A stretch of DNA of 44,395 nucleotides from Gaiellaceae bacterium (GTDB lineage: Bacteria > Actinomycetota > Thermoleophilia > Gaiellales > Gaiellaceae), in assembly GCA_033858115.1 (NCBI GenBank), contig JAWVCV010000110.1:1-44395 (forward strand). The letters are read 5' to 3'. The notes below the pieces were generated by a model, which was not told the origin of the DNA, searched no databases, and saw nothing but the letters and a program-made list of their open reading frames with translations. Shown here one piece after another: positions 42,311 through 44,395 of this stretch. Position 1 is the first letter of the stretch, and the number at the start of each line of letters is the position of its first letter. A program made the translations under genes and the position numbers.

Positions 42311-42526
42311 ATGGCCGTCGAGATCCACTACTGCCCGGTCTGAGCGGGCTACGACGAACGAGCCGCGAGTCTCGCGGCCACGCTGAACGGTCAGGGCATC
42401 CCCGCGTCGATCATCGCAGGAAAGACCAAGCAGTTCGACGTGCTCGCGGACGGCAAGCTTGTCTTTTCGAAGGAGCGCGAGGGACGCTTTCCCGACGAGC
42501 CCGAGATCGTCGCACTGCTTGGCTGA
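42311..42526 (+). CDS. Rdx/SelW-like thiol-oxidoreductase-fold protein with in-frame TGA (candidate selenocysteine, CxxU)
   Basis: Not in the ORF track. ATG is at 42311, TGA at 42341-42343 (codon 11) and the stop at 42524-42526. Read-through gives MAVEIHYCPV-U-AGYDERAASLAATLNGQGIPASIIAGKTKQFDVLADGKLVFSKEREGRFPDEPEIVALLG. The Rdx family pattern is (V/I)EIxYCxxC/U...RAxxL...DG.L(V/I)(F/W)SK...GRFP. Confidence 0.6.
42362..42378 (+). promoter_or_regulatory. Candidate bacterial SECIS-like hairpin downstream of the in-frame TGA
   Basis: GCCGCG-AGUCU-CGCGGC is a 6-7 bp GC stem with a GU-containing apical loop. It starts 18 nt after the TGA. Confidence 0.4.
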
Positions 42527-43800: not shown

Positions 43801-44124
43801 TCAGGCGAAGAGGGCGCGCACGCGCTGAAGCGCCTTCGGCGCGAGCCGGTAGTAGGCGTAGGTGCCTCGCTTCTCGCGCTCGAGCAGGCCGACGTCGGTG
43901 AGCCGCTTCAGGTGATAGCTCACCGTCGGCTGGCTGATCCCGAGCTCCGGCTCCAGGTCGCAGACGCAGCAGGCTTCCGAGCCGGCGTTGAGCAGCATGC
44001 TCACGATCTTGACGCGGTTCTTGTCCGCGAGAGCGCCGAAGAGCGATTCGAGCTCGCCCGCGTGCTGGTCGGAGAGCTCGTTGGCGAGCGGGGTGCAGCA
44101 GGCGATCAGGGGCAGTTGCTTCAC
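43801..44124 (-). CDS. ArsR/SmtB-family metal-responsive transcriptional repressor
   Basis: 107-aa ORF starting at GTG. It has ALADKNRVKIVSML, an alpha3 metal-site-like ACCVCDL, the HTH GISQPTVSYHLKRL, and an extra N-terminal CC. Confidence 0.88.
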   Translation of the reverse strand: MKQLPLIACCTPLANELSDQHAGELESLFGALADKNRVKIVSMLLNAGSEACCVCDLEPELGISQPTVSYHLKRLTDVGLLEREKRGTYAYYRLAPKALQRVRALFA

Positions 44125-44133
44125 GACTTGAAC

Positions 44134-44155
44134 TATATCGACAGCTGTCGATATA
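44134..44155. promoter_or_regulatory. 22-bp perfect palindrome (candidate ArsR/SmtB operator) in the spacer of a near-consensus promoter
   Basis: TATATCGACAGCTGTCGATATA is a perfect 22-bp palindrome. It is flanked by TTGAAC (44128-44133) and TATATA (44152-44157), giving -35/-10-like hexamers with an 18-nt spacer on the + strand. A second inverted repeat, CATCGA-N6-TCGATG, lies at 44162-44179. Confidence 0.6.
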
Positions 44156-44194
44156 TAACTACATCGACATCTCTCGATGAAAGGAGGTGCCCGA

Positions 44195-44251
44195 ATGAAC
44201 GGTTGTTGCGAAGGTGGTGACTGCTGCGACGGCAGCGAGAGCTGCTGCTGA
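44195..44251 (+). CDS. 18-codon cysteine-rich micro-ORF (MNGCCEGGDCCDGSESCC), candidate mini-metallothionein-like peptide
   Basis: Not in the ORF track. AAGGAGGTG lies 7 nt upstream of ATG 44195. It has three CC pairs in 18 codons and a TGA stop at 44249-44251. It is divergent from the ArsR gene, downstream of the palindrome/promoter, and followed by a hairpin. Confidence 0.5.
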   Translation: MNGCCEGGDCCDGSESCC

Positions 44252-44269: not shown

Positions 44270-44302
44270 GAGGACTTAGTGGCTCTGAGCTACTAAGTCC
44301 TC
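44270..44302. terminator. AT-rich 11-bp perfect-stem hairpin between convergent genes (possible bidirectional terminator; no U-tract)
   Basis: GAGGACTTAGT-(11 nt loop)-ACTAAGTCCTC. Confidence 0.45.
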
Positions 44303-44314
44303 AGCCCTCGGTGG

Positions 44315-44395
44315 TCAGCGGTCGAGGAAGCGCCGGACCGCGCCCTGCGCCTCGTCGCCGAGCATCGAGAGCGCCAGCCAGTCGCGCGCATGGCC
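44315..44395 (-). CDS. C-terminal fragment of an unidentified CDS entering from beyond the window
   Basis: My translation of the minus strand gives ...GHARDWLALSMLGDEAQGAVRRFLDR followed by stop (TCA at 44315-44317). Codon usage is GC3-rich. The product was not identified. Confidence 0.3.
   Translation of the reverse strand, partial: GHARDWLALSMLGDEAQGAVRRFLDR

Follow-up and report, generated by a model that had tools for sequence, protein, structure and literature searches.

The window analysed here, a 44.4-kb stretch of DNA (44,395 nucleotides) from a soil actinobacterium of the Gaiellaceae, carries in its last ~600 bases a divergent pair of small genes. One is arsR, on the reverse strand (43801–44124, GTG start, 107 aa), taken from the list of open reading frames (ORFs) and recognized by the family models NF033788 and PF01022. 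The other, on the forward strand, is an 18-codon micro-ORF (44195–44251) that reads MNGCCEGGDCCDGSESCC and ends with TGA (44249–44251). Its peptide is acidic and one-third cysteine (33 %), the cysteines arranged in vicinal pairs, and contains no basic, aromatic or His residues. The 70-nt intergenic region is an AT-rich island with 43–45 % GC in 60-nt windows, compared with ~0.65–0.75 in its surroundings and ~70 % for the genome. It holds two inverted repeats (44134–44155 and 44162–44179) and a strong Shine-Dalgarno (SD) sequence, AAGGAGGTG (44181–44189, forward strand), whose GGAGG core lies 7 nt before the ATG. The initial annotation of this DNA had pointed to the island upstream of arsR, to a perfect 22-bp palindrome and a second inverted repeat within it, to the strong SD sequence and to an acidic ORF with three Cys pairs followed by TGA and a hairpin, and all of these are present. 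The 18-codon Cys-pair gene adjoining arsR is real, conserved and unannotated.

The pair was compared across 80 genome and 57 metagenome loci around ArsR relatives, together with loci retrieved by exact protein look-ups (numbered with the prefix L). A divergent Cys-pair micro-ORF lies beside ArsR orthologues of 54–88 % identity (L001, L002, L003, L043, L084, L085, L087–L091, L139, L141, L143–L146, L147–L154, L155 and L157). There are at least 16 peptide variants with lengths of 15, 17, 18 or 25 aa, and every length difference keeps the frame. The variants include MSACCEGGDCCDSGGDCC (18 aa), MASCCDSGESCSGDDCC and MASCCDGGECCSGDGCC (17 aa each), MSGCCEGGDCCDGTDDCCDGTDDCC (25 aa, with one extra repeat and 8 Cys), MDRDAIAPLGCCEGGDCCDGTDDCC (25 aa), and VEPCCPPDSCPPDCC (15 aa). 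Across the nine sequences of 18 codons all six Cys columns are kept, with switches between TGT and TGC, variable sites are distributed 6/7/11 over the three codon positions, and the mean nonsynonymous divergence (dN) of 0.13 and mean synonymous divergence (dS) of 0.70 give a ratio of 0.19. The non-Cys positions (acidic, Gly and Ser) are also under constraint. The TGA stop is kept in all copies except one, which has TAG, and nucleotide identity is 83 % within the ORF versus 35 % (ungapped) over the next 57 nt.

A six-frame pattern scan of both strands of the window and of L001–L146 returned 17 matches, every one of them divergent from an arsR gene and every one preceded by an SD-like purine run (AAGGAGG, AGGGAGG, AAGGGG or similar). 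Judged by its conserved frame, start, stop and ribosome-binding site, the micro-ORF is a protein-coding gene under purifying selection. Loss of the peptide frame in relatives had been named beforehand as the outcome that would speak against such a gene; with a dN/dS of ~0.19 and 17 of 17 pattern matches beside arsR, the frame is clearly conserved. An alternative start at the in-frame ATG at 44177, which would give a 24-aa form, was considered and rejected. This ATG has no SD sequence, belongs to the second inverted repeat (TCGATG) and is out of frame in L002, so the SD-proximal ATG is taken as the start. Scans of the 24-aa extended form against Pfam and NCBIfam gave no family at E≤1, metallothionein models included, and a plasmid tblastn search with the 25-aa variant gave no match, a result that the low-complexity filter may have masked. 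Gene callers missed the micro-ORF in those annotated loci that display the slot. One copy was over-extended to a 49-aa 'hypothetical protein' (P0121), which was the single candidate that a large protein database gave for a 43-aa concatenate of two variants and which led to the arsR-arsC context described below.

The two inverted repeats share one core. Box 1, TATATCGACAGCTGTCGATATA (44134–44155, core 44137–44152), is a perfect palindrome whose 11+11 nt arms, TATATCGACAG and CTGTCGATATA, are 100 % complementary; box 2, CATCGACATCTCTCGATG (44162–44179), is a second copy of the core. Both were found by repeat search and by comparison of loci. The motif ATCGA-N6-TCGAT occurs exactly twice in the 44.4 kb, both times in this intergenic region, against an expectation of 0.14, and only 1 of 100 shuffled sequences reaches two. 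The centre of box 2 is 26 bp from that of box 1 and 24 nt before the micro-ORF start codon. Two such boxes, 23–27 bp apart centre to centre, are present in 17 of the 18 loci compared. The core at the box 1 position has no mismatch in 14 of the 18 and one mismatch in L081, L083 and L147, and it is shifted in L043; the upstream layout of L147 and L043 is different from that of the other loci. At the promoters of the micro-ORF and of arsM, which takes its place in some loci (see below), the promoter-proximal box is centred 21–24 nt before the start codon, the exception being L043 with 36 nt. The conserved operator unit has a 5-6-5 core and measures 18 bp when its Y/R flanks are counted, and the 22-bp perfect palindrome is a local elaboration of this unit that is specific to the window. 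The 12-2-12 type of site assigned by the initial annotation therefore gives way, on the comparison of loci, to two copies of ATCGA-N6-TCGAT.

Promoter elements are less sharply defined. Hexamers resembling −35 and −10 elements, TTGAAC (44128–44133) and TATATA (44152–44157), are present on the forward strand with an 18-nt spacer as first described, but a sigma-70 consensus scan of the window gave 0 sites, so that the micro-ORF promoter stays putative. Relatives have TTGACT at the position of TTGAAC (L084, L085 and L141) and TGTAAT, TGTATT, TGTACA or TATATA at the −10-like position. On the reverse strand a possible arsR −10 box, TATAGT (44132–44137), is placed 7 nt upstream of the GTG, which has no SD sequence upstream of it; arsR is probably leaderless because of these two features. 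One end of the palindrome would form this −10 box (44122–44137 region). Putative TATA-type hexamers flank box 1 on both sides, TATATA for the micro-ORF and TATAGT for arsR, and box 1 would overlap the −10 elements of both divergent promoters.

Downstream, a GC-rich hairpin with 16-nt arms (44270–44302, 94 % complementary, from repeat search and folding) separates the micro-ORF from a convergent gene. The 75 nt after the micro-ORF stop fold at −37.7 kcal/mol (z = −4.9), and a strong hairpin follows the stop in all 14 loci folded, with sequences that are unrelated between lineages. The hairpin, which a scan for T-tract terminators did not call, probably serves as a bidirectional terminator that lacks a U-tract; an Rfam scan of the whole window gave no match. 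The module ends at the convergent gene, the 3′ end of a crotonase/enoyl-CoA hydratase (44315–44395, reverse strand) that terminates in RRFLDR and a stop codon at 44315–44317. Its identity comes from synteny with an ORF of L001 (2649–3812), and the called ECH_1 genes in L139, L143, L155 and L157 are syntenic with it. Because this gene ends at 44315–44317, the micro-ORF has no same-strand gene downstream. Every locus with enough sequence has a hairpin and then a convergent gene behind the micro-ORF, which bears out the earlier statement that it has nothing to act on as a leader.

Cys-rich short ORFs act as cysteine-responsive attenuators in Actinobacteria (bioRxiv 10.1101/834739), and the micro-ORF, with a hairpin 3′ of it, could be read in the same way: ribosome pausing at its Cys codons would signal a shortage of cysteine or thiols during arsenic stress and would influence termination at the hairpin, the fate of the mRNA, or the convergent gene through antisense interference. 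This has very little probability in our estimate. The micro-ORF has a strong SD sequence and a 5′ untranslated region instead of being leaderless, the hairpin begins 10–20 nt beyond the stop codon and so lies wholly outside the ORF, positions other than Cys are constrained too, and the gene that lies downstream, never on the same strand where enough sequence is available, varies between contexts. A Cys-sensing leader fails because an SD sequence and a probable terminator are present and a downstream cistron is not. A leader peptide in general and the precursor of a ribosomally synthesized and post-translationally modified peptide were likewise rejected, since every context lacks both a downstream cistron and modifying enzymes.

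The regulator is an ArsR/SmtB-family protein, scoring 85.6 bits against NF033788 (cutoff 55) and 56.8 bits against PF01022 HTH_5 (cutoff 22); its score of 77.5 bits against the Rv2640c-family model NF041413 is below the cutoff of 155. More than 200 close relatives were found, mostly in soil metagenomes and in metagenome-assembled genomes (MAGs) of Gaiellaceae and other Thermoleophilia, and an exact look-up of the window ArsR returned no record. An N-terminal Cys9-Cys10 pair and a Cys53-Val-Cys55 motif are invariant among the orthologues in a 19-sequence alignment. The best match in the PDB is 6J0E, the 'Arsenic responsive repressor ArsR' of C. glutamicum (CgArsR; E = 1.8e-14). The As(III) site of CgArsR is made of Cys15-Cys16 and Cys55′ of the other subunit (PMC11868830). 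The CC pair of 6J0E aligns with Cys9-Cys10, and its Cys55 column lies a few positions N-terminal to the CCVC cluster of the window ArsR; the invariant Cys53 and Cys55 are near, in a different column. CadC and SmtB are the next PDB matches (E 6.8e-10 to 2.5e-8; CadC, E = 5.8e-9), and the CadC-type alpha3N cysteine pattern, an N-terminal Cys plus CVC in alpha3, is present. Since the CVC motif is found in both R773-ArsR and CadC, the cysteine pattern by itself is compatible with more than one effector. The regulator is closest to arsenic-type ArsRs.

The micro-ORF/arsR pair occurs in at least four contexts. In the window, L001, L139, L143, L155 and L157 it lies between two crotonase genes; L084/L085 provide a second context and L043 a third; and L147–L154 form a fourth, with the micro-ORF opposite an arsR-arsC(LMWPc) operon that has pit/phoU on one side and pstS-type phosphate-transport genes on the other. 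Phosphate-transport genes encode entry routes of arsenate. ArsR orthologues that are 73–88 % identical (L081, L083, L138, L140, L142 and L156) drive arsM from twin boxes, with the same spacing to the start codon and the same SD position as at the micro-ORF, and the divergent product of L083 scores 303.5 bits against NF008823 (cutoff 263). In four of these loci arsM occupies the crotonase slot (L138 5189–5935, L140 2196–2933, L142 1536–2282 and L156 2164–2943). The order is crotonase, X, arsR, crotonase, where X is arsM or the micro-ORF behind a common twin operator and SD sequence. Possession of arsM or of the micro-ORF is a presence/absence polymorphism among closely related Gaiellaceae-like genomes. 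A release-factor-like gene (baeRF_family10/acVLRF1) was also seen a few kb from the module in L139 (9842–10489) and L142 (4715–5344), with no obvious connection to it.

This alternation in one slot raises the question of whether the micro-ORF is what was left when arsM was deleted, a remnant that kept promoter, SD sequence and a short Cys-rich fragment while only the autoregulation of arsR matters. The best local DNA alignments of the micro-ORF to arsM do fall mostly (81 %) in the arsM Cys loop, nt 40–140, and L138 retains a piece of the L139 hairpin arm after its arsM stop. The alignments reach z values of up to 4.9 against mononucleotide shuffles, but they were rejected as evidence of descent, being not above a codon-shuffle null (median z = 0.14; 4 % of pairs with p≤0.05). 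Moreover, the architecture is kept down to 54–70 % ArsR identity and in all the contexts listed, with the low dN/dS, constant Cys columns and in-frame length changes described above, and the SD sequence, start and stop are conserved while the sequence just downstream cannot be aligned. A neighbour-joining tree of the 107-aa ArsR, low in resolution, has the micro-ORF state in deep branches and arsM nested within. The micro-ORF may descend from arsM, but a non-functional remnant is unlikely, and the chance that autoregulation of arsR is all that matters here appears slim indeed.

Genes for arsenic handling surround this ArsR clade more widely. At least one of arsC, ACR3, MIP, arsM or arsI is found in the flanks of 77 of the 124 ArsR-clade loci. 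An unbiased Pfam census of 150 neighbouring ORFs counted LMWPc 18 times, SBF/ACR3 13 times, MIP 9 times, polyphosphate kinase 8 times and PstS 5 times, and neither P-type heavy-metal ATPases nor CDF proteins were among the 25 most frequent families. Three independent lines, namely the arsM orthologues, the neighbours of the clade and the arsR-arsC context of the micro-ORF, favour arsenic, and the effector of the window ArsR is probably arsenite and not Zn, Cd or Cu, as far as gene neighbourhoods can tell. Separately, polyphosphate kinase, PstS-type and GAPDH genes recur beside arsR of the sister clade (L004–L039; for example L009, L011, L012, L019, L024, L027 and L029), which suggests that phosphate or polyphosphate metabolism is linked to arsenate handling in these Thermoleophilia.

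Cys-pair modules are also carried by the arsenic enzymes of these loci. ArsM proteins have N-terminal extensions with CC-x7-CC-x7-CC (L026, L038, L039 and L044) or vicinal-Cys modules such as ACCGDDCCS (L052) and SCCGTEGGCCG (L156). An ArsI/CadI-type protein ends in ACCSGESACCSA (L007 3505–3936), and an ArsO-like flavoprotein has CC-rich tails (L068 2354–3880). These modules are of the same kind as the free micropeptide.

The initial annotation had likened the pair to SmtB/SmtA. The general arrangement, an ArsR-type repressor divergent from a Cys-rich micro-ORF under an operator, is confirmed, but the analogy to a Zn/Cd metallothionein is not: it probably names the wrong effector, because the ArsR clade is embedded among arsenic genes and arsM is the gene controlled by its closest orthologues. 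A CadC/SmtB-like sensor paired with a miniature metallothionein that sequesters Zn, Cd, Cu or Pb instead of arsenite would nevertheless agree with several observations, among them the alpha3N-like N-terminal Cys and CVC of the regulator, the rank of CadC and SmtB as its next structural matches, and the ArsI/CadI-family genes in the sister clade. Six thiolates, together with the carboxylates, would be ligands for Cd(II), Zn(II), Cu(I) or Pb(II) as well. However, the neighbouring genes are arsC, ACR3, MIP and arsM, with no heavy-metal ATPase or CDF protein among the top 25 families; the closest ArsR orthologues regulate arsM from the same operator; and one variant faces arsR-arsC amid phosphate/arsenate uptake genes. 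The peptide itself, with 18 aa, no His and no match to a family or to any metallothionein model, does not have the characteristics of SmtA/BmtA metallothioneins, which measure about 50–60 aa and hold a Zn4 cluster by Cys and His. We consider a miniature metallothionein unlikely.

Our preferred reading is that arsR (43801–44124) and the 18-codon gene (44195–44251) form a self-contained, divergently transcribed arsenic-response module, and that the micro-ORF encodes an arsenite-binding thiol micropeptide repressed by ArsR and induced by As(III); to this reading as a whole we assign a probability of roughly 0.55. In the absence of arsenite, ArsR dimers would occupy both ATCGA-N6-TCGAT boxes, with box 1 between and over the −10 regions of the two promoters and box 2 covering the point where the micro-ORF transcript begins. 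Repression of both genes would follow, and the module would be autoregulated by ArsR. As(III) would bind an S3 site formed by Cys9-Cys10 and the Cys53/Cys55 region, upon which ArsR would leave the DNA. A monocistronic mRNA of ~140 nt, ended by the hairpin at 44270–44302, would then be produced and efficiently translated from its strong SD sequence. The product would be an acidic hexa-cysteine peptide that chelates As(III) through its three vicinal Cys pairs, presumably in two AsS3 sites per molecule. Such a peptide may act as a sink or buffer for arsenite or pass it on to further enzymes or transporters of arsenic, and in function it would be a counterpart, made on the ribosome, of phytochelatin or metallothionein.

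Several points weigh against this reading. No other ars gene is present in the 44-kb window or in the flanks of the micro-ORF loci of the crotonase slot. Because the window has none, the arsenic link of its locus rests on orthology. All the loci come from uncultured MAGs or metagenome contigs. The N-terminal Cys and CVC of ArsR also resemble those of the CadC alpha3N sensors for Cd, Pb and Zn, and neither promoter nor terminator is picked up by the consensus scans. Finally, a peptide of 18 aa may be short-lived or become oxidised in the cell.

An arsenic-induced peptide could also serve in another role: as an As(III) metallochaperone to ArsM, ACR3 or another acceptor whose gene lies elsewhere, as a feedback buffer in competition with ArsR for As(III), or as a sacrificial thiol or redox buffer. 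Vicinal Cys pairs are As(III) ligands of ArsD, which is compatible with a role of this kind, as is the replacement of arsM and the micro-ORF by each other at one promoter. The CC modules appended to ArsM and ArsI-like enzymes, where they would feed the catalytic site, and the vicinal Cys ligands of As(III) in CgArsR (PMC11868830) point in the same direction. In the crotonase slot, however, the micro-ORF has no linked partner gene, its sequence would suit simple sequestration just as well, and another role of this sort seems rather doubtful. Going beyond the arsenite-binding micropeptide of this one locus, we propose tentatively, at slightly less than even odds, a new class of arsenic-resistance determinant: phytochelatin-like peptides of 15–25 aa with 5–8 Cys, mostly in pairs, each encoded by an ArsR-controlled stand-alone gene that is interchangeable with arsM, and binding ~2 As(III) per molecule.

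A further unannotated gene was noted elsewhere in the window. A Rdx/SelW-like ORF (42312–42526, forward strand) begins with MAVEIHYCPV, continues after an in-frame TGA (42341–42343) with AGYDERA and ends in ALLG, so that a CPVU (CxxU) motif would result. With the TGA read as Cys, the ORF scores 42.1 bits against Pfam Rdx (PF10262; cutoff 22.6). Annotators called only truncated 'Rdx' products of 48–53 aa in the syntenic loci, as expected if UGA is taken as a stop. The ORF probably encodes a selenoprotein.

The micro-ORF is a clean example of a functional gene under the annotation length threshold. If the proposed function is true, its product would be the shortest gene-encoded metal- or metalloid-binding peptide known in bacteria, invisible to current gene callers, and soil Thermoleophilia would alternate between a methyltransferase and a chelating micropeptide behind one promoter under ArsR control. 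Should the peptide bind arsenite, gene-encoded sequestration by a thiol peptide would join efflux, reduction and methylation as a form of arsenic resistance, and a natural 18-aa As(III)-binding tag with a matched repressor/operator pair would be available for biosensors and bioremediation. In the literature we found neither an ArsR-linked Cys-rich micro-ORF nor a native bacterial As-binding peptide, in a search that did not cover subscription journals and in which absence is not proof.

Among known systems, SmtB-SmtA of Synechococcus shares with the module a divergent pair of repressor and thiol-rich product, a common intergenic operator and, on the reading proposed here, derepression by the ligand that is sequestered. 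SmtA, however, is a protein of ~56 aa with a Zn4-cluster fold, Cys and His ligands and a Pfam family of its own, whereas the micropeptides have 15–25 aa, Cys in vicinal pairs only, and no family; the operators differ as well (12-2-12 versus the twin 5-6-5), and the context is zinc in one case and arsenic in the other. The ars operons of C. glutamicum under CgArsR1/2, whose As(III) site is of type 3 (6J0E), provide the best structural homologue of the regulator, with an aligned N-terminal CC and the same divergent arrangement of an actinobacterial ArsR and its targets. Genes of arsenic handling (arsM, arsC, ACR3 and MIP) are regulated by orthologues of the window ArsR too. The window ArsR differs in that it also keeps the alpha3 CVC of R773- and CadC-type sensors. 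The targets of CgArsR1/2 are a transporter or an enzyme, while that of the window ArsR is an 18-codon ORF.

ArsD resembles the proposed arsenite-binding micropeptide in that it is ArsR-controlled and binds As(III) and Sb(III) through vicinal Cys pairs, of which it has three. Unlike the micropeptide, with its 18 aa, ArsD has ~120 aa, a thioredoxin-like fold and the ArsA ATPase as partner; there is no sequence relationship between the two, and no arsA was seen in the loci compared. The polycysteine small ORFs of mycobacteria are similarly unannotated, very short, Cys-rich and actinobacterial. They are leaderless first cistrons of cysteine-metabolism operons on which ribosomes stall (bioRxiv 10.1101/834739), whereas the micro-ORF has an SD sequence and its own terminator-like hairpin, lacks a downstream cistron and is tied to ArsR.

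Phytochelatins, engineered (Glu-Cys)n peptides, small fungal metallothioneins (~25 aa) and MymT are comparable to the proposed micropeptide in being short, acidic, thiol-dense chelators whose induction depends on toxic metals or metalloids. In plants As(III) is chelated mainly by phytochelatins, which are made enzymatically from glutathione, in contrast to the gene-encoded micropeptide. MymT of M. tuberculosis, a Cu(I)-binding protein of 53 aa, is controlled by a repressor that senses Cu (PMC11672702). Modules of the form CC-x(3-7)-CC(-x-CC) are likewise found in the N-terminal loops of ArsM and the C-terminal tails of ArsI/CadI-like enzymes, where they are parts of larger proteins, whereas the micropeptide stands alone. 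The micropeptide is no member of a metallothionein family and its regulator is closest to the arsenic type; the module would be a pair of metal(loid)-responsive repressor and thiol-rich binding product, probably specific for arsenic, in which the product is unusually small and changes places with arsM in a single slot.

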